64,000 nt of DNA from Escherichia coli. Lineage in GTDB: Bacteria; Pseudomonadota; Gammaproteobacteria; Enterobacterales; Enterobacteriaceae. Shown here piece by piece: positions 8,129 through 55,133 of the stretch (position 1 is the stretch's first letter; the number at the start of each line of letters is the position of its first letter). The notes under the pieces are model-generated. The model ran no database searches. It saw nothing but the letters and a program-made list of their open reading frames with translations, and was not told the origin of the DNA. A program made the translations under genes and the position numbers. The stretch is taken from the NCBI RefSeq assembly GCF_001677475.2, contig NZ_CP015229.1. One strand, 5' to 3'.

Positions 8129-9116
8129 AAGCAACAGCTACCTGGAACAGGCGGCGATCCTGCTGCTGTGTCTGGGCGAAGAGGCGGCGGCGACGGTGAT
8201 GCAAAAACTCAGCCGCGAAGAAGTGGTGCGCCTGAGCGAAAACATGGCGCGGCTTTCCGGCGTCAAAACCAGCATGGCGCGCAAAGTGATCAATAACTTC
8301 TTTGATGAGTTCCGCGAACAGAGCGGCATCAACGGCGCATCGCGATCCATGTTGCAGGGCATTCTCAACAAAGCCCTCGGCACCGAGATCGCCAGCAGCG
8401 TGATCAACGGCATCTACGGCGATGAGATCCGCTCACGGATGGCGCGTCTGCAATGGGTGGAACCACGCCAGCTGGCGATGCTGATCTCCGAAGAGCATCT
8501 GCAATTGCAGGCAGTGTTCCTCGCGTTTCTGACACCGGAAATCTCGGCGGCGGTGCTTTCATATCTCAACGAATCGGTACAAAACGAAATTCTCTATCGG
8601 GTGGCGAAACTCAACGACGTCAACCGCGACGTGGTGGATGAACTGGACAGGCTGATCGAACGCGGTCTGTCAGTACTTTCGGAGCACGGCTCGAAGGTGA
8701 AAGGCATCAAACAGGCGGCGGATATCGTCAACCGCTTTCAGGGCAACCAGCAGGTGATCCTCGACCAGATGCGCGAGCGTGACGAAAACGTGCTGGAGCA
8801 GCTCCAGGATGAGATGTATGACTTCTTTATCCTCAGCCGCCAGAACGAAGAGGTGCGCCGACGTCTGCTCGACGAAGTGCCGATGGAAGACTGGGCGGTG
8901 GCGCTGAAAGGTACTGAAGCTCTGCTGCGCCGTTCCATTTACGCGGTAATGCCAAAACGTCAGGCTCAGCAACTGGAAGCGATCACCGCGCGCCTGGGGC
9001 CGGTGCCGGTCAGCCGTATCGAACAGATCCGCCGCGAAATCATGGGCATTGCCCGTGAGCTGGAAGAGGCGGGCGAAATTCAGCTACAGCTTTTTGCGGA
9101 ACAGACGGCGGAGTAA
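8106..9116 (+). CDS. lfiG: Flagellar motor switch protein FliG homolog
   Basis: 336 aa FliG-like; overlaps fliF homolog end. Confidence 0.85.
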   Translation: MSELTTNKSNSYLEQAAILLLCLGEEAAATVMQKLSREEVVRLSENMARLSGVKTSMARKVINNFFDEFREQSGINGASRSMLQGILNKALGTEIASSVINGIYGDEIRSRMARLQWVEPRQLAMLISEEHLQLQAVFLAFLTPEISAAVLSYLNESVQNEILYRVAKLNDVNRDVVDELDRLIERGLSVLSEHGSKVKGIKQAADIVNRFQGNQQVILDQMRERDENVLEQLQDEMYDFFILSRQNEEVRRRLLDEVPMEDWAVALKGTEALLRRSIYAVMPKRQAQQLEAITARLGPVPVSRIEQIRREIMGIARELEEAGEIQLQLFAEQTAE

Positions 9117-48664: not shown

Positions 48665-48740
48665 GCCGATATAGCTCAGTTGGTAGAGCAGCGCATTCGT
48701 AATGCGAAGGTCGTAGGTTCGACTCCTATTATCGGCACCA
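48665..48740 (+). tRNA. thrW: tRNA-Thr (anticodon CGU)
   Basis: gccgatatagctcagttggtagagcagcgcattcgtaatgcgaaggtcgtaggttcgactcctattatcggcacca; cloverleaf with CGT anticodon and CCA end. Confidence 0.95.
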
Positions 48741-48754
48741 TTTAAATCAATAAG

Positions 48755-48960
48755 TTACACATCATTAGTACCTTCCTTATTTCTTGACTGGGACAAATTT
48801 GGGACCGATGGGTTCAGAATCGAGTCTATTTGCCGTGCGTGTTCGGTAAGGTGATTAGGTGCGAGGTGAGCATATCGACGAACCATTTCAAGAGTTTCCC
48901 ATCCTCCCATTTCTGTAAGTGCAAGAAGAGAAACACTGGACTGAACCAGCCTGCTTGCCT
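48755..48960 (-). pseudogene. Tyrosine recombinase/integrase remnant (C-terminal fragment only)
   Basis: ORF encodes ...[36 protein letters not shown] (integrase C-terminus with catalytic Tyr) but lacks upstream catalytic domain; abuts thrW 3' end. Confidence 0.7.
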
Positions 48961-49103
48961 TTGCTATCAAAGTACCTTGAGGACCAGATGATTTCTGGCG
49001 ATATTTACAGCGCGTCCGCAATGAGTTTTTCTCCGTGCCGCCAGTGACGTTCCCCGCTTTTTCAGTGCGGCGATAATATCAGCGGGATGCCAGTCCTGTT
49101 GTG

Positions 49104-49574
49104 TCATACAACCACCTCGCTGATAAATTTTACGCCGTCGGCGGTGCGCAGCCAGCGCGGGGCTTTGAGTCCTTCCATGAAATACCAGACCAGTTCACAC
49201 AACAGCCCGGTCAGGGTTTGTTCCGTTTTTGGTTCCGCCGGGCGTTCCAGCAGAAGCTGGAGTAGTGCGAGGCAGTATTCGCACAAGGAATCTGGTTCGG
49301 AAATAAAGTGCTCTGGTGTGGCGGGAAGGGTATCAACGGTCAGGCTTTCAATCAGATGCGGCGGGATGGGGTCGTGCAGCGTGGGGTGCAATAGCGCAAG
49401 AGCCGCGTGAAGCCGTCCGCAGAGCGCTAGCCGTAGCGCGGGATCGTCGGTTTCGATCAGGGTTTCGGCGAAGCGGGCGCAGTAATCGGCAAGGACAGTA
49501 AAATCCGTGGTGGCATTGAAGGGGGCGGACAGCAGATCGAGTAAATCGCAGTCAGGGGTGAGGGTTGTAGCCAT
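49104..49574 (-). CDS. Hypothetical protein (island-encoded, unknown function)
   Basis: 156 aa from ATG 49572-49574 with upstream aggag RBS; no recognisable motif. Confidence 0.5.
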   Translation of the reverse strand: MATTLTPDCDLLDLLSAPFNATTDFTVLADYCARFAETLIETDDPALRLALCGRLHAALALLHPTLHDPIPPHLIESLTVDTLPATPEHFISEPDSLCEYCLALLQLLLERPAEPKTEQTLTGLLCELVWYFMEGLKAPRWLRTADGVKFISEVVV

Positions 49575-49917
49575 AGGGCGTCTCCTGTAACGGTTTATTA
49601 TGTCCGCCACTAGAGAGGCTAATCTCATGGGGGGCGGAACCGGACGGGGTTAGCCTTACCGGCGTTACAGGAAACCGGCGCGTCTTGCGACGCCCCCGCC
49701 CGGCCCGCCATTGAGGTGTAGCCGAACGCACGACACAAAAAAGACGCTGGTGCGTCAAGTGTCGCCTGTAACGGTTTTCAGGAGGCTAATCCCGACGCCT
49801 GATTTTGCAGGCGCGGGAGAAAGATACTGCGATTGGTCATGAGTGGCAAGGGCTACATCCTGTTTACCGACATCTCACGCAAAAATACCCTGATTATTAA
49901 TAGCGAAAATCAGTTTC

Positions 49918-52900
49918 TTATTTTGGCGGTAGCTTTTTGCGGTTCTTTGCCAATTGGAATCCTTCAGGTAACGGTTTGAATTTATCGCCGCCTTTAGGCC
50001 AGCGTTTTGCCCTGCTCTGAAATGCCCTTAACGAGTCGATATCCAGTGTTGCAGCGATCACAAAGTCATTATCGCCGCCCTTCACACGAGCAATATCACG
50101 CATAAAGGGTTCTTTTGCCGGGGAACGTACGCGACTATCGCCGTATTTTCGGTTATTCACTAAAATGGTATAGGCATGAATATCCAGCGCTGCTGATTCA
50201 ATCAACGATGCAAACGTATCCAGATCTTTATTCCAGCTCAATACCATTAATGCATCGAGCGCGCCCTGAAAACGGATCCTCGCTTTACTATTCTGGAGTT
50301 CAGAGCAAATCATAACGCCAAAATTGACGCCGTGATGAATATATACCGGCTTACGTTGTTTAACATTAAGTGTCGAGTCCCAAGACTTACCATAAGTTGA
50401 AAATAATGCCTCATCTTCACCTACGGCGGGTTCCAGCTTGGGTTGCCATATTTTGACACTCGCTGGATAGCCGAGTCTGTTATCTGAAAGGACAAGTACG
50501 GCCTCACTCTTCAGTTGATTATCGCCTAAGTGGCGGTATTCTGTTCCCGCAATTAGACTGATACCCGCCGAACTCAAACGATCAGCAATACTGTTAACCC
50601 AGCGTAACGGGATTGAAAGCTCGGGGAATAAAACATAATCAGGTTTAGGAGATAGTTTCAATGTTGCATTAACCAGTTCAGAAATCCGCTGGTACCTTGA
50701 ACGGGACAAGTTAGATTTATTGCAGGCCATTTTAGCCCAGTCGTCTTCCTCTGTTTTAATGCTGGTTAGCGCAACGACAATTTTATGTTTCCTGTCAGTG
50801 CCAATATGAATGAATTTCTTAGGCCGAGCTTTTTTTGTCGCTTCATCTGAGTCCTGCTCCGATGCTAGTAACGTCGGTTTGATCCATACACCGCGTAATG
50901 CTTGAGTATATTTTGCCCAAACGGTGGACGGTCTCTCATCTGGTTTTTTGTCGGATGTAGAGGGTAATCCAACACATTCGGGGGCCAGTTCTGATATTTC
51001 AGCGGGAGTTAAAGGACGTGTAGGGAAAATGTAAGGTAGGTAACTTTCGTTCTTACGATTTCCTTTAGCCACTTTTTCCAGTCGGGTATTCTTGGTTGAT
51101 TTCAAAAATAGCTTAATAACGTCAATATCAATAAGCGATGAGTCCCTCATTAATTTCAGTATTTTAACTTCTTTTTTACGATCACGCTGATTAACAAGTT
51201 TTTCTGCCGACTGACTCTTTACGATCTGTTTATAAGGTTCCTTTGCTAAATCAGCTCGAGCTACCAATGGCGCTTTTAAATAAAAATCTGCTGAATCAAA
51301 GCGAAGATCCAGTAAATCCTTTAGATTTGTCAGACTTTGTGAAATATGATTAAAAAATGTATCCGCAAGGCACTCTTCTTTCTTTGAACGTTTATCAAGA
51401 AATAATCTGTCAGGACTGTAATATCGTGTCGCTGCATCAACAAATAGCCAGCTTAATGTGCCTTTTATACAGCGCCAAAGATCATTTACTGCTCGAGTTT
51501 TGCAACCATTTATAGTCACTTCCTTACCTGAAGTAATCACCGATGCCAACAGGTTGATGGACTCGTAAGCTTTAAGTACAATTTTTTCCGCGTGCTGCCA
51601 TTCATTCATACTGATAGCAAAGCCAAGCAGCCTTGGCAGATAACTAAAATGTGCAAATAGATTATCAGCCCTAAGAATATGGTTGTAGGCAAACTGATAA
51701 AACTCTTCCCGCTGTTCTTTCCATTCACTTGGAGACAGATCTCGTGCCAGTGTTTCAACGTAGCGTAATTGCAGTGACCAGCCCAAACGACGAATGGTTA
51801 ATCCATCCGCACGGCGCAGAGTATCGGCATTTTCACCTACACTACCGGCAGCGGAAAGGACTTTAGCTGCGGTGGAGTGTTCCAGTTGATCCGGTGAAGG
51901 CATCAAGCGGTGTTCACTAGAAAGCTCGTAGATCTCCTTTTCGATACTGTCGAGCAGATCTATTCCTGCCCTCCCTTGAAGCACGAAAAGTTTTTGCTTA
52001 TCGGATTGTAACTGGATGGTGGTCTTACCCTGGAAATGCTCGCCCTGCTGTATTTGCCATATTTGTTTTTTCTCGTTTTTCAGATAAACGCAATCATTGC
52101 CAAGCCTATCTTGCAGCAATAACATAAATTCGTGATTATTAGTAATTTTACCTGTATCGCGTATTACAAGGAACATATCATCGACATAACGACCGTAGTG
52201 AATTGGCGACAGTTTTTCAATGACTAATTTATCCCAATGGTGTAGCAATATATTGGAAATGATCCGACTGGCTGTTAATCCAATGACCAGACCACCATTA
52301 ATAACAGGTGTTTTGTACGCTATTTTTTTTCCAAATGCCGCTGCGCCGTCAGACCAGTGCTTTAAGAATACAGCTAACTGTGCAGTAAACGCTTTTTCAT
52401 GCTCAGTCAGTTTTATGTTTAGTGTGTTATAGAGATCATCAGAGGTTATAGCCAGTGGATCAATAAAATGATAGTAACTTTTTAAATCCAGTGAGGCGGC
52501 GATAATGTCACGATCTTTTTCCAACTCGTCACGTATAGCTTTTAAGCCATCACCACGCCATTTTTGGTAGGGCTGGAAATAGGGGCTAAAAGAACCCACG
52601 GCACTGATATGGAATGGATTATCCTGCTCATTGCTAAATAATTCATCATTACGAATACGTTTTAGCCGCGCGCCATAACAACAGTTGTCTAAGCTGGCAT
52701 CAAATTTATGCCCGACCATATTAATCCATAGTGCAGAGATAATGTGACTATCAACCGGGAAGTCACCAATAATACGAAACTCTGGTATCAGATCAAAATT
52801 ATTAAATAAATGGTCGGCTGCTCGTTTAGGATTAGAAAAGTGGACGTGTCCATTTTGGAATTCATGTTTTTTCTTTGTGGTTAATTTTTTCGGTAACAAA

Positions 52901-53127
52901 CGAAATTTGCCAATCAACTTCTTATTGCTACTGAATCCATCTTCGCTCTGCAAAATATCTAAGAGTTCTTGCAGGTTTTCAATTAATTCCTGCTCATACT
53001 CGGCAAATTTGATAGCAACAGGAAATGTATTCTCAAAGAAGCTATCGGCTTTGGCTTTCCGGTAAGCGACCAGAAGGTCTTCAATCGTCAGATCATCCCA
53101 GCCAGTGAAAGTTGCCTGATATGTCAT
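49918..53127 (-). CDS. Reverse transcriptase-nitrilase fusion protein (UG/Abi-type defence-associated RT architecture)
   Basis: 1069 aa; RT motifs LDLKSYYHFIDP, GGLVIGLTASRIISNILL, YGRYVDDMF; C-terminal CN-hydrolase signatures FPELSIP and GVMICSELQN; low-GC gene. Confidence 0.75.
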   Translation of the reverse strand: MTYQATFTGWDDLTIEDLLVAYRKAKADSFFENTFPVAIKFAEYEQELIENLQELLDILQSEDGFSSNKKLIGKFRLLPKKLTTKKKHEFQNGHVHFSNPKRAADHLFNNFDLIPEFRIIGDFPVDSHIISALWINMVGHKFDASLDNCCYGARLKRIRNDELFSNEQDNPFHISAVGSFSPYFQPYQKWRGDGLKAIRDELEKDRDIIAASLDLKSYYHFIDPLAITSDDLYNTLNIKLTEHEKAFTAQLAVFLKHWSDGAAAFGKKIAYKTPVINGGLVIGLTASRIISNILLHHWDKLVIEKLSPIHYGRYVDDMFLVIRDTGKITNNHEFMLLLQDRLGNDCVYLKNEKKQIWQIQQGEHFQGKTTIQLQSDKQKLFVLQGRAGIDLLDSIEKEIYELSSEHRLMPSPDQLEHSTAAKVLSAAGSVGENADTLRRADGLTIRRLGWSLQLRYVETLARDLSPSEWKEQREEFYQFAYNHILRADNLFAHFSYLPRLLGFAISMNEWQHAEKIVLKAYESINLLASVITSGKEVTINGCKTRAVNDLWRCIKGTLSWLFVDAATRYYSPDRLFLDKRSKKEECLADTFFNHISQSLTNLKDLLDLRFDSADFYLKAPLVARADLAKEPYKQIVKSQSAEKLVNQRDRKKEVKILKLMRDSSLIDIDVIKLFLKSTKNTRLEKVAKGNRKNESYLPYIFPTRPLTPAEISELAPECVGLPSTSDKKPDERPSTVWAKYTQALRGVWIKPTLLASEQDSDEATKKARPKKFIHIGTDRKHKIVVALTSIKTEEDDWAKMACNKSNLSRSRYQRISELVNATLKLSPKPDYVLFPELSIPLRWVNSIADRLSSAGISLIAGTEYRHLGDNQLKSEAVLVLSDNRLGYPASVKIWQPKLEPAVGEDEALFSTYGKSWDSTLNVKQRKPVYIHHGVNFGVMICSELQNSKARIRFQGALDALMVLSWNKDLDTFASLIESAALDIHAYTILVNNRKYGDSRVRSPAKEPFMRDIARVKGGDNDFVIAATLDIDSLRAFQSRAKRWPKGGDKFKPLPEGFQLAKNRKKLPPK

Positions 53128-53422: not shown

Positions 53423-54226
53423 ATGTCTATTCAGGGGCGACATTTGCCAAATTATCTAAACTGGCTGATGCAGAATACGCTACCCGGTCAGGTGCTGCTC
53501 CAGTCATGGCTTACCCGCAACGGCGTAGATCGTAAGCTCTCTTACCTCTATGTCCAGAATGGCTGGCTCAGGCGGATCGCTCACGGCGTATACTGCCGGA
53601 CGGGTCGTGAACCGGACTGGGTGGACGCGGTTTACTGCCTGCAAACACAGTGGGAAAAGCCAGTACGGGTGGCGGGGCTAACCAGCCTTGCGCTTCAGGG
53701 CCATGCGCACTATACCGAACCGGGTAAGCCGCAAATCTGGCTCGCGCTTCCGGCTTACGTCAAACTGCCGGGATGGTTTGCTGCCTTCGAACAATCTGCA
53801 ACATTTATCACGCTGTATACATCGGGCCTTACCGTTGATGTCACGTCATTTACTACGGAACTGAAAATTGGCGACCGGCAGTTAGCAGGCAGTGCCCCGG
53901 AACTGGCCGCGTATGAGATCGCCTGCGGCGTTCCTTCGTTGATATCGTTCGAACATGCCGATGCTCTGTTTCAGGGGATGAATCTTCTCAGCCCGCGTAA
54001 ATTGCAGGCGTTACTCTGCGCCAGTCATTCGGTTAAAACCAACCGGGTGATGCTTTACCTTGCCCGGCGTAATGGACACCCTTATTTTCAGTATATTGAT
54101 CAAAGCGGTATAGAAACAGGTACGGGAAAGCGGCAAATCATACCCGGCGGCTGGCTGGAGCCGGATTATCAAATTACTGTTCCACGCGAATTTAAACCGG
54201 AAGGAGTCGAAGATGGATCTGCGTGA
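53423..54226 (+). CDS. AbiEi-like antitoxin / transcriptional regulator (type IV TA)
   Basis: 267 aa; N-terminal AbiEi-type wHTH-like region (LTRNGVDRKLSYLYVQNGWLRRIAHGVYCRTG); overlaps downstream NTase gene by 14 bp. Confidence 0.6.
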   Translation: MSIQGRHLPNYLNWLMQNTLPGQVLLQSWLTRNGVDRKLSYLYVQNGWLRRIAHGVYCRTGREPDWVDAVYCLQTQWEKPVRVAGLTSLALQGHAHYTEPGKPQIWLALPAYVKLPGWFAAFEQSATFITLYTSGLTVDVTSFTTELKIGDRQLAGSAPELAAYEIACGVPSLISFEHADALFQGMNLLSPRKLQALLCASHSVKTNRVMLYLARRNGHPYFQYIDQSGIETGTGKRQIIPGGWLEPDYQITVPREFKPEGVEDGSA

Positions 54227-55133
54227 TAGCTATACCCGGCAGGTCAAACTGTTGATGGCCGCTCTGCCGCATGTGGCGAAGGAGTCCTGTTTCGCGTTGA
54301 AAGGCGGCACGGCAATCAATTTGTTTGTGCAGGATTTTCCCCGTCTGTCGGTGGATATCGATCTGGCGTATAAGACTTTTGCGGATCGCGATACCGATTT
54401 GACGGCGATCAACGACGCTTTGAAGAGAATTACTGCATCGCTGAACAGTAAACCGGGGATTACCGCGATTCGGCAGGAAAATAAAACGGATGAAAAGCGC
54501 ATCATTGTGAATACGGCTGATGCCCAGATTAAGATCGAGGTTAGTCCGGTCTGGCGTGGGCTGTTGTTGCCTCCGGCAGAAATGTCGGTGTGCGAACGTG
54601 TGGAAATGGAGTATGGCTTCACCACTATGAGTGTCGTTTCGCTGGCGGATCTTTATGGCGGTAAAATCTGCGCAGCGCTTGATCGTCAGCACCCGCGCGA
54701 TCTGTTTGATGTGCTGAATATGCTGGAGAAACCGGGACTGATGCGGGAGATCTTTGACGGTTTTCTTTGTTATCTGGCAGGCCATCCCCGCCCCATTGCC
54801 GAGTTGCTGGCCCCAAACTGGGATACAGAGCGGATCACGACGCTGTATGCCCAGGAATTTTCGGGGATGACTCAGCAGGAAACGTCGCTGGAATCGCTGC
54901 TGTCAGTAACGACTTTGCTGCCGCAGGCGTTGAAGTCACATCTTACGGATCTGGATCGCGAGTTCTTGCTCAGTTTTAAGCAAAACAGCCCTGACTGGTC
55001 GCGGTATCGCTATCCTGAAATTCAGCATCTTCCGGCTATTCGCTGGAAGCAACGCAATCTGGCGGTGCTTAAAGATAAAAATCCGGCGAAGTATGTGGCG
55101 GCGGTGAATAAGCTAGAGAGGGTGCTGGAGTAA
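54213..55133 (+). CDS. AbiEii-like nucleotidyltransferase toxin (DUF1814-type)
   Basis: 306 aa; NTase motif LKGGTAINLF ... RLSVDIDLAY (hGG...DhD). Confidence 0.65.
   Translation: MDLRDSYTRQVKLLMAALPHVAKESCFALKGGTAINLFVQDFPRLSVDIDLAYKTFADRDTDLTAINDALKRITASLNSKPGITAIRQENKTDEKRIIVNTADAQIKIEVSPVWRGLLLPPAEMSVCERVEMEYGFTTMSVVSLADLYGGKICAALDRQHPRDLFDVLNMLEKPGLMREIFDGFLCYLAGHPRPIAELLAPNWDTERITTLYAQEFSGMTQQETSLESLLSVTTLLPQALKSHLTDLDREFLLSFKQNSPDWSRYRYPEIQHLPAIRWKQRNLAVLKDKNPAKYVAAVNKLERVLE

Follow-up and report, generated by a model that had tools for sequence, protein, structure and literature searches.

A conserved protein gene in the kil position of a P4-type RNA immunity cassette, and its probable place in integrase-only islands of Enterobacterales

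Introduction

Immunity in phage P4 depends on the CI RNA, which pairs with two targets, seqA and seqC; in the terms used by Rfam, the isrK element is P4 seqA and the C4 RNA is P4 CI RNA (PMC4825925; PMC3632133). In the c4-icd-ant operon of P1/P7 and the isrK-orf45-anrP operon of Gifsy-1, a C4-clan RNA or isrK controls translation of the first cistron (PMC4825925; Rfam clan CL00128). Here we analyze a stretch of 64,000 nucleotides (nt) from Escherichia coli (NCBI RefSeq assembly GCF_001677475.2, contig NZ_CP015229.1), called the window throughout, which contains the proBA-thrW region, and within it an open reading frame (ORF) of 156 codons, ORF156, that lies behind an RNA cassette of this kind.

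The counterpart of ORF156 by position is kil of P4, reportedly the first gene to be translated after the promoter P_LE and nested within eta. Translation of kil is said to be under immunity control and to be needed to prevent Rho-dependent termination at t_imm, and overexpression of kil is reported to kill cells. A second point of comparison is provided by the 'integrase-only' defense islands of E. coli, whose mobilization is unexplained (Hochhauser et al. 2023; PMC10121019). We estimate a probability of about 0.6 that ORF156 belongs to the backbone of a family of integrase-only islands that are inserted at tRNA genes in Enterobacterales and use P4-type RNA immunity.

Results

A P4-type immunity cassette lies upstream of ORF156

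A sequence-only reading of the window had placed a 156-codon ORF at 49574..49104 on the minus strand, between an integrase C-terminal remnant (48755-49021) and a reverse transcriptase (RT)-nitrilase gene (49918-53127), and co-oriented with the latter. The ORF is present with the right coordinates and in the setting described. The 343 nt that separate it from the RT gene contain a promoter and an RNA cassette, given here in order of transcription together with ORF156:

49821..49849, minus strand: P_LE-like sigma-70 promoter, TTGCCA-17-TATCTT, 5' of isrK
49737..49827, minus strand: isrK / c4-a1b1 element (P4 seqA), the upstream C4 target, from Rfam
49627..49715, minus strand: C4 antisense RNA (P4 CI RNA, carrying seqB), RF01695
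49617..49622, minus strand: seqC box 1, TTAGCC, complementary to C4 GGCTAA
49592..49584, minus strand: seqC box 2, CGTTACAGG, complementary to C4 CCTGTAACG and running into the Shine-Dalgarno (SD) sequence AGGAG at 49586..49582
49104..49574, minus strand: ORF156, putatively the opening cistron of an operon under immunity control, at the position of kil in P4

The C4 match, on the strand of ORF156 and upstream of it, scores 73.7 bits (E 1.6e-13) against a gathering score of 45. The isrK match (RF01394, 49814..49737, minus strand) scores 68 bits, and the c4-a1b1 match (RF03163, 49827..49775, minus strand) scores 43.8 bits, slightly below its gathering score of 46.7. P4 itself gives the same three Rfam matches in unchanged order. 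The seqA boxes of the window are TTAGCC (49789..49784) and CGTTACAGG (49773..49765), with a terminator hairpin and T-run 3' of them (49756..49743), and the pairing boxes of C4 are CCTGTAACG (49671..49663) and GGCTAA (49655..49650). ORF156 has a good ribosome-binding site, as had been noted: the sequence upstream is TAATAAACCGTTACAGGAGACGCCCT-ATG, AGGAG ends 7 nt before the ATG, and the two G's that end seqC box 2 also begin the GGAG SD. What had been described as a structured noncoding region is indeed a structured RNA between ORF156 and the RT gene, but it is the phage P4 immunity cassette (P_LE-like promoter, isrK/seqA, C4/CI RNA, and seqC) rather than an RT template or partner.

Complementarity among the boxes was assessed in an alignment of 40 loci, with controls in which the 3' partners were slid by 1-3 columns and with 500 shuffles. 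Between C4 and seqC, 94.3% of cells are paired and 11 of the 15 pairs have changed on both sides, with 106 cells changed on both sides compared to a shuffled mean of 25; between C4 and seqA, 98.5% of cells are paired, 13 of the 15 pairs have changed on both sides, and 117 cells have done so compared to a shuffled mean of 28. Neither count was reached by any shuffle (0/500 in each case), and pairing in the slid controls was 27-50% for C4-seqC and 20-42% for C4-seqA. Three-way complementarity of C4, seqA, and seqC is kept by covariation across the 40 loci, and the locus has what a C4/CI immunity operon has, a C4-clan RNA upstream on the same strand with covarying targets both upstream and at the ribosome-binding site. 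These patterns support antisense targeting of the ORF156 ribosome-binding site. Box 1 occurs in the variants TTAGCC, TTGGAA, TTGGTC, TTGACC, TTAGCA, and TTGGCA, which combine freely with the variants of box 2, as expected for many heteroimmune specificities. In the promoter, the TTG of the -35 element is invariant across the 40 loci and the -10 element almost so.

ORF156 occupies the position of kil in P4

When the leaders of the window, P4, and six relatives are aligned, all of them continue after the CI/C4 RNA as ACAGGAG...ATGGCTACAACCCT(C/T)ACCCC. In P4, the ATG of this segment opens a 65-codon ORF (MATTLTPSHPEF...) nested in a 214-codon ORF (8812..8168), which we take to be kil and eta, respectively. 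ORF156 has the same SD, ATG, and opening seven codons (MATTLTP) as P4 kil. Like kil, it is the ORF with which translation begins downstream of P_LE and the CI RNA, and its SD falls within seqC. Some homologs of ORF156 also have a longer in-frame 'Ash' extension fused to the ORF, reminiscent of the nesting of kil in eta. The resemblance ends at codon 7, past which the two are unrelated, and ORF156 encodes 156 amino acids (aa) whereas Kil has 65.

Between P4 kil and the ORF153 family, as we call ORF156 and its homologs, the DNA of the first ~8 codons (window 49551-49574; alignment columns 340-363), ATGGCTACnAyCCCyACyCA, is conserved, though the proteins are otherwise unrelated. This stretch is C-rich and G-poor and may act at the RNA level, for example as a rut site or one similar to t_imm.

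ORF156 encodes a conserved protein with a predicted four-helix fold

ORF156 is a real protein-coding gene, far beyond a chance ORF, because it has a family of homologs, a low ratio of nonsynonymous to synonymous substitution rates (dN/dS), and a confident AlphaFold2 (AF2) model. A search at E<=1e-3 finds 616 homologs, with few exceptions 150-157 aa long and every one labelled 'hypothetical', in Enterobacterales hosts including Escherichia, Salmonella, Klebsiella, Enterobacter, Citrobacter, Dickeya, Pectobacterium, Brenneria, Hafnia, Serratia, and others; at 50% identity the family has 181 representatives. Close pairs have dN/dS of 0.09-0.13 and distant pairs 0.2-0.35. Intact ORF156 is present in >1100 E. 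coli genomes (E. coli counts refer to 5426 complete genomes), and in some strains the sole copy is a truncated, unannotated one in which 65% of the ORF is covered. In a tblastn search of 50,697 phage records, the sole match was an unannotated contig of 1.5 kb; sequenced phages are thus almost devoid of the family.

The protein is rich in Leu (19.9%), Ala (10.3%), and Thr (10.3%), followed by Pro (8.3%), Glu (7.7%), and Asp (7.1%); it is acidic, with an isoelectric point (pI) of 4.46, and has no transmembrane segments (maximum KD19 1.09). The absence of a recognizable motif, also remarked on in the sequence-only reading, holds in scans with Pfam, PHROG, NCBIfam, and PADLOC, all without a match. 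Structure prediction gives a confident AF2 model from a 41-sequence alignment (predicted local distance difference test [pLDDT] 91.3, predicted TM-score [pTM] 0.84), with an up-down four-helix bundle and a small C-terminal beta-hairpin. Remote-homology searches give no informative relative: a profile search of PDB sequences returned noise only (best E=0.09), and Foldseek with the model found no viral structure at E<=0.001.

Several candidate identities were rejected. Homology to P4 Kil has an hhalign probability of 0.7%, with only the ATT residues aligned, and the P4 ORF151 family has a profile-profile hhalign probability of 0.1% (BLASTP E=10). P4 epsilon, the Derepression protein, matches PF25738 at 9e-51, whereas ORF156 has no match to it and a BLASTP E of 0.3 to epsilon; the Ash family (PF10554, Phage_ASH) does not match ORF156 either. 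Type I toxins are small hydrophobic or membrane proteins, usually of <60 aa, under the control of a cis-encoded antisense RNA; antisense control is present here, but the protein is soluble and of 156 aa. ORF156 is probably not an enzyme.

About seven distant homologs (~40% identity, 149 aa; loci L067-L073 near 10001, e.g., L071 9956-10405) have a core-genome setting, with a GCN5-related N-acetyltransferase (GNAT) gene, the ORF153 homolog, apbC/mrp, and metG in this order, in Pluralibacter, Citrobacter, and other Enterobacteriaceae. They may be domesticated or orphaned copies.

A shared backbone in tRNA-inserted islands

Scanning one genome per species gave 53 loci with an ORF153-family gene. 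The cassette is directly upstream of this gene in 43 of them, and an Rfam scan of four ORF-carrying loci found C4 and isrK in all four. In E. coli, Klebsiella, and Dickeya, the backbone has a constant order: isrK and C4, ORF153, a Ner-like gene with a helix-turn-helix (HTH) domain of the HTH_35 type (4-nt overlap), sometimes an HTH_3 gene, the EFASI RNA, Integrase_1 (PF12835), and, next to a tRNA gene, a P4-type integrase. Among the intact islands are L005, L021, and L022, which lie at asn-tRNA in E. coli. ORF153 and the Ner-like gene overlap as ATGA in 29 of 31 pairs. The Ner-like gene, which is 68-92 aa at full length in intact islands, is found at 27 of the 53 species-level loci, Integrase_1 at 17, and the P4-type integrase at 20. 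The switch, ORF153, and the Ner-like gene together are a conserved part of at least one family of integrase-only islands.

SatelliteFinder recognizes a P4-like satellite by psu, delta, sid, alpA, and alpha together with an integrase. Within 10 kb at the 53 loci, none of alpha, sid, delta, psu, epsilon, ORF151, or kil was found, and there was one Vis/AlpA match. Because alpha, sid, delta, and psu are missing, the islands fall outside the current definition of P4-like satellites.

In intact islands, the EFASI RNA (RF02957) lies just 5' of the Integrase_1 gene, for example at L005 11733-11861, L009 11300-11429, L016 11836-11966, and L027 12197-12326. The same pair is also found in a Salmonella island that has an RT homolog and lacks C4 and ORF153.

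The island at thrW and its cargo

The remaining features of the window's island are the following:

48665..48740, plus strand: tRNA-Thr(CGT), thrW, the integration site
48755..49021, minus strand: integrase C-terminal remnant (PF00589, phrog_1), abutting tRNA-Thr
48967..49107, minus strand: truncated Ner-like HTH_35 gene, its ATG overlapping the ORF156 stop codon (ATGA, 4 nt)
49918..53127, minus strand: RT-UG5-nitrilase (PADLOC RT_UG5-nitrilase PDLC03780, E=0), full-length, variable defense cargo
53423..55133, plus strand: AbiEi/AbiEii pair, on the distal side of the cargo slot

This island is degraded. Its Ner-like gene is cut after ~24 matching residues, and EFASI, Integrase_1, and the P4-type integrase are absent from it. 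The integrase remnant and the P4-type integrase belong to different elements, since the 3' end of the remnant faces the tRNA (lambdoid geometry), and many E. coli genomes have a full-length integrase at the position of the remnant (matches covering query 1-319); the thrW locus is therefore a composite of at least two insertions. The window and E. coli strains 405 and S9 are colinear through the remnant junction, as one aligned piece, in which the pseudogene remnants differ by 6-10% and the ORF by 7-8%; flanking core genes and the RT gene are 97-99% identical. Differences in the ORF are mostly synonymous (dN 0.03, dS 0.25). Taken at face value, this pattern suggests that ORF156 is kept by selection in an immobile remnant, and recombination with intact islands could give the same signal.

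Positions 48741-49860 are mosaic: the integrase remnant, the Ner remnant, the ORF, C4, and isrK are 86-94% identical to strain 405, compared to 98-99% for the flanking core genes and the RT gene. The seqC-C4 segment of the window is 99% identical to strain S9 and 86% to strain 405. The immunity region thus appears to recombine independently of the cargo.

Cargo is inserted 5' of the promoter and varies among islands: the RT and AbiE in the window and in strain 405, a type I restriction-modification (R-M) system and AbiE at the same thrW site in strain S9, and elsewhere Rhs/DUF2169, DUF4747 with AbiE and TacAT, or type I R-M with DarTG. The AbiE pair recurs in islands of E. coli S9, Klebsiella, Serratia, and Trabulsiella. 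A locus of Serratia marcescens (L034 562-6715) has AbiEii, AbiEi, RT, C4, ORF153, and the Ner-like gene in the order of the window, with aa identities to the window of 91% for AbiEi, 88% for AbiEii, and 81% for the RT, and of 62% for the backbone ORF. Since the cargo is far closer to that of the window than the backbone ORF is, this comparison suggests that the cargo block has passed from one kind of island backbone to another.

Outside E. coli (L015, L016-L018 1-11220, L020), the RT-UG5-nitrilase gene is usually, as in Yersinia, Salmonella, and Citrobacter, 3' of a type I R-M operon, in a co-oriented series of type I R-M, a KwaA-like 184-aa gene, a 277-aa protein, and the RT, which could be a composite defense locus. 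In Marinobacter, the RT-UG5-nitrilase gene lies 3' of a Fic gene within a Tn7-like element.

Discussion

We favor a role for ORF156 in the derepressed state, as an effector that binds other proteins, because relatives have Kil-epsilon, Icd-Ant, and orf45-AnrP as the occupant of this slot and its coupled cistron. In this scheme, a constitutive P_LE-like promoter would drive a transcript of seqA (isrK), the C4/CI RNA, seqC, ORF156, and the Ner-like regulator, which in intact islands would continue into the EFASI RNA and the Integrase_1 gene. The two loop boxes of the processed C4 RNA would pair with seqA and seqC, and because the second seqC box overlaps the SD of ORF156, translation of ORF156 would be blocked in an established island. 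If the analogy with P4 kil holds, a transcript that is not translated would end prematurely, so that the coupled Ner-like gene and everything behind it would stay silent; both the translational block by C4 and the termination are steps we infer from work on P4 and P1. Synthesis of ORF156 would be confined to times when C4 is missing or titrated away, such as entry into a naive cell or loss of immunity.

Several observations weigh against placing ORF156 in such a backbone as an immunity-controlled effector. Ten of the 53 loci have no cassette detectable by DNA profile; two of these have sRNA-Xcc1 (RF02221) instead of C4 (L027 9841-9925 and L052 9830-9913), which may be an alternative type of antisense RNA in the slot upstream of ORF153. 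At five of the 53 loci, a deletion from box to box has removed C4 and left promoter and ORF intact, and antisense control is therefore not universal. C4 and isrK were not detected at the core-genome loci of the distant homologs. Searches by sequence and by fold lead to generic helical bundles and no informative relative, so that the proposed effector role derives solely from position, and a linker-fusion AF2 prediction of ORF153 with the Ner-like protein from a paired alignment, a weak test, gave pTM 0.50 and pLDDT 72.9 and so lends no support to a complex of the two. In the window, moreover, the ORF is still constrained with its downstream genes truncated or deleted, a poor fit to a purely mobility-related role.

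In the short-leader variants (L030 9858-9975, L048, L056, L061, and L064), the promoter and seqA box 1 are joined to the tail of seqC, with ORF153 and the Ner-like gene intact; the loss of C4 looks like the product of recombination between the box 1 copies of seqA and seqC. Several of these genomes (Leminorella grimontii, with four, and Enterobacter sp. ENT03) have 3-4 copies of the module, so regulation in trans is possible at the loci without C4.

The sequence-only reading had suggested that ORF156 might be an accessory of its neighbor. As an explanation, an accessory of RT-UG5-nitrilase defense with the structured RNA as RT template or guide has the two genes' adjacency and co-orientation in the window to recommend it, and the junction is identical in all 260 E. 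coli genomes with this RT, with S. marcescens L034 having the order AbiE, RT, C4, ORF as well. We nevertheless give it almost no credence. The E. coli cases are a single island lineage in which the RT is >=98% identical, and across complete E. coli genomes the ORF family is present in 1329 and the RT in 260, with 260 junctions of the module to the RT and 539 of the same backbone to hsdS of a type I R-M system. At the species level, the RT is found at 1 of the 53 ORF loci, that of S. marcescens. RT homologs at 70-76% identity in Yersinia, Salmonella, Citrobacter, Vibrio, and Marinobacter have no ORF156 homolog by tblastn, and the three of these loci that were scanned (Yersinia, Salmonella, and Vibrio) have neither C4 nor isrK. 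Co-occurrence with RT-nitrilase homologs is thus not conserved across independent lineages. The guanine-plus-cytosine content is 57.7% in ORF156 and 41.8% in the RT gene, and the RNA is accounted for as a P4 immunity cassette. UG5-large defense is reported in a 2025 preprint to be a single RT-nitrilase gene with no noncoding RNA, and the canonical downstream partner in the UG5-large module is a transmembrane protein, unlike ORF156 (doi 10.64898/2025.12.16.694600). This removes a false lead: the neighboring RNA and ORF are not template or accessory of the RT, which should therefore be cloned alone for defense tests.

Among the explanations that keep the link to the immunity cassette, ORF156 as a Kil-like toxin with C4 as its antisense antitoxin, an addiction module that stabilizes the island and its defense cargo, is a serious rival, though an unlikely one. 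The slot is that of P4 kil, reported to be lethal when overexpressed, and addiction would explain why ORF, C4, and promoter are all kept in the immobile thrW remnant and survive in decayed islands. The requirement scored for IsrK-like elements of P4-like prophages in transposon-directed insertion-site sequencing (TraDIS) of S. Typhi (PMC3632133) points the same way. The loci that have lost C4 yet retain promoter and intact ORF weaken this explanation, speaking weakly against strong toxicity; the protein is a soluble acidic bundle without Kil homology rather than a small membrane peptide, and strong purifying selection would be unusual for a pure addiction toxin in a fixed remnant. An equally possible role is that of an immediate-early establishment protein, such as an anti-restriction or anti-defense factor or one that takes over host or helper, expressed transiently as the island enters a cell without C4 RNA. 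P4-type immunity would allow expression only before C4 accumulates, many anti-defense proteins are likewise small, acidic, and helical, and the islands themselves traffic defense systems. On the other hand, ORF156 resembles no known anti-defense family or viral structure, and constraint in an immobile remnant would not be expected of such a protein unless recombination refreshes alleles. Finally, a functionless leftover of a degraded element, still open by chance, would agree with the loss of both Integrase_1 and the P4-type integrase and the truncation of the Ner-like gene in the window's island and with the strains that have only the truncated copy. It is very improbable given that dN/dS is 0.12 for alleles with this degraded junction in common, where neighboring pseudogene remnants 6-10% apart have no such bias, and given the number of E. 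coli genomes with an intact ORF and the conservation of length and fold across the order. The earlier suggestion of a leftover phage gene is borne out insofar as the backbone is that of a P4-related mobile element, but the gene is not decaying: it is intact, under purifying selection, and has kept its promoter and antisense control.

Returning to ORF156 as a backbone effector, we can extend the reading, more tentatively, to the islands as a whole. The series P_LE-seqA-C4-seqC-ORF153-Ner-like might be the control switch of a large, unrecognized family of integrase-only defense islands, in which ORF153 would start the active state (excision, transfer, or helper hijacking) when RNA immunity lapses; we think this rather unlikely. 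If true, it would supply the life cycle that integrase-only islands have been missing, and P4-type RNA immunity, heteroimmune through two recombining boxes, would work well beyond P4 satellites. Irrespective of this, a P4-type antisense switch before a conserved protein and a Ner-like regulator, present in many integrase-only islands, provides a regulatory handle on them and makes their induction experimentally approachable.

The comparison with P4 also exposes an annotation problem. PF10554 ('Phage_ASH') matches residues 37-161 of the P4 eta ORF (L003 8168-8812), the old 'cI protein', and not epsilon, which belongs to PF25738. The frame matched by PF10554 is a translation across the seqA/isrK and CI/C4 RNAs (window 49620-49785; L005 9865-10023), and where PGAP annotates an 'ash family protein' next to an ORF156 homolog, it has called this same frame. 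De Sousa et al. used PF10554 as an epsilon marker for P4-like satellites (PMC8628076); given what the family matches, this marker really reports the immunity-RNA locus.

The regulatory logic described here is already known from P4 and P1 immunity, and the order of promoter, isrK/seqA, C4/CI, and seqC is that of P4. Downstream, the P4 operon continues with epsilon, ORF151, cnr, and alpha, whereas the genes here are Ner-like and Integrase_1. The first cistrons of P1/P7 and Gifsy-1 are translationally coupled to a regulator that is made only upon derepression, as would be the case here; however, they are short and leader-like (45-73 aa) and coupled to an antirepressor, whereas the cistron here encodes a folded protein of 153-156 aa coupled to an HTH protein of the Ner/Nlp type. 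The islands resemble those of Hochhauser et al. (PMC10121019) in being tRNA-associated and defense-carrying, with at least one integrase and no recognizable mobilization genes, and AbiEii hotspots are included among them; in the passages searched, that study mentions no regulatory cassette, whereas here a P4-type RNA switch is conserved. What is new relative to all of these systems is that a different, folded, and conserved protein is found in the kil slot, that the gene in this slot is coupled to a Ner-type regulator instead of to replication genes, and that the set belongs to non-satellite, integrase-only defense islands, a class whose mechanism has been noted as unexplained (PMC10121019).

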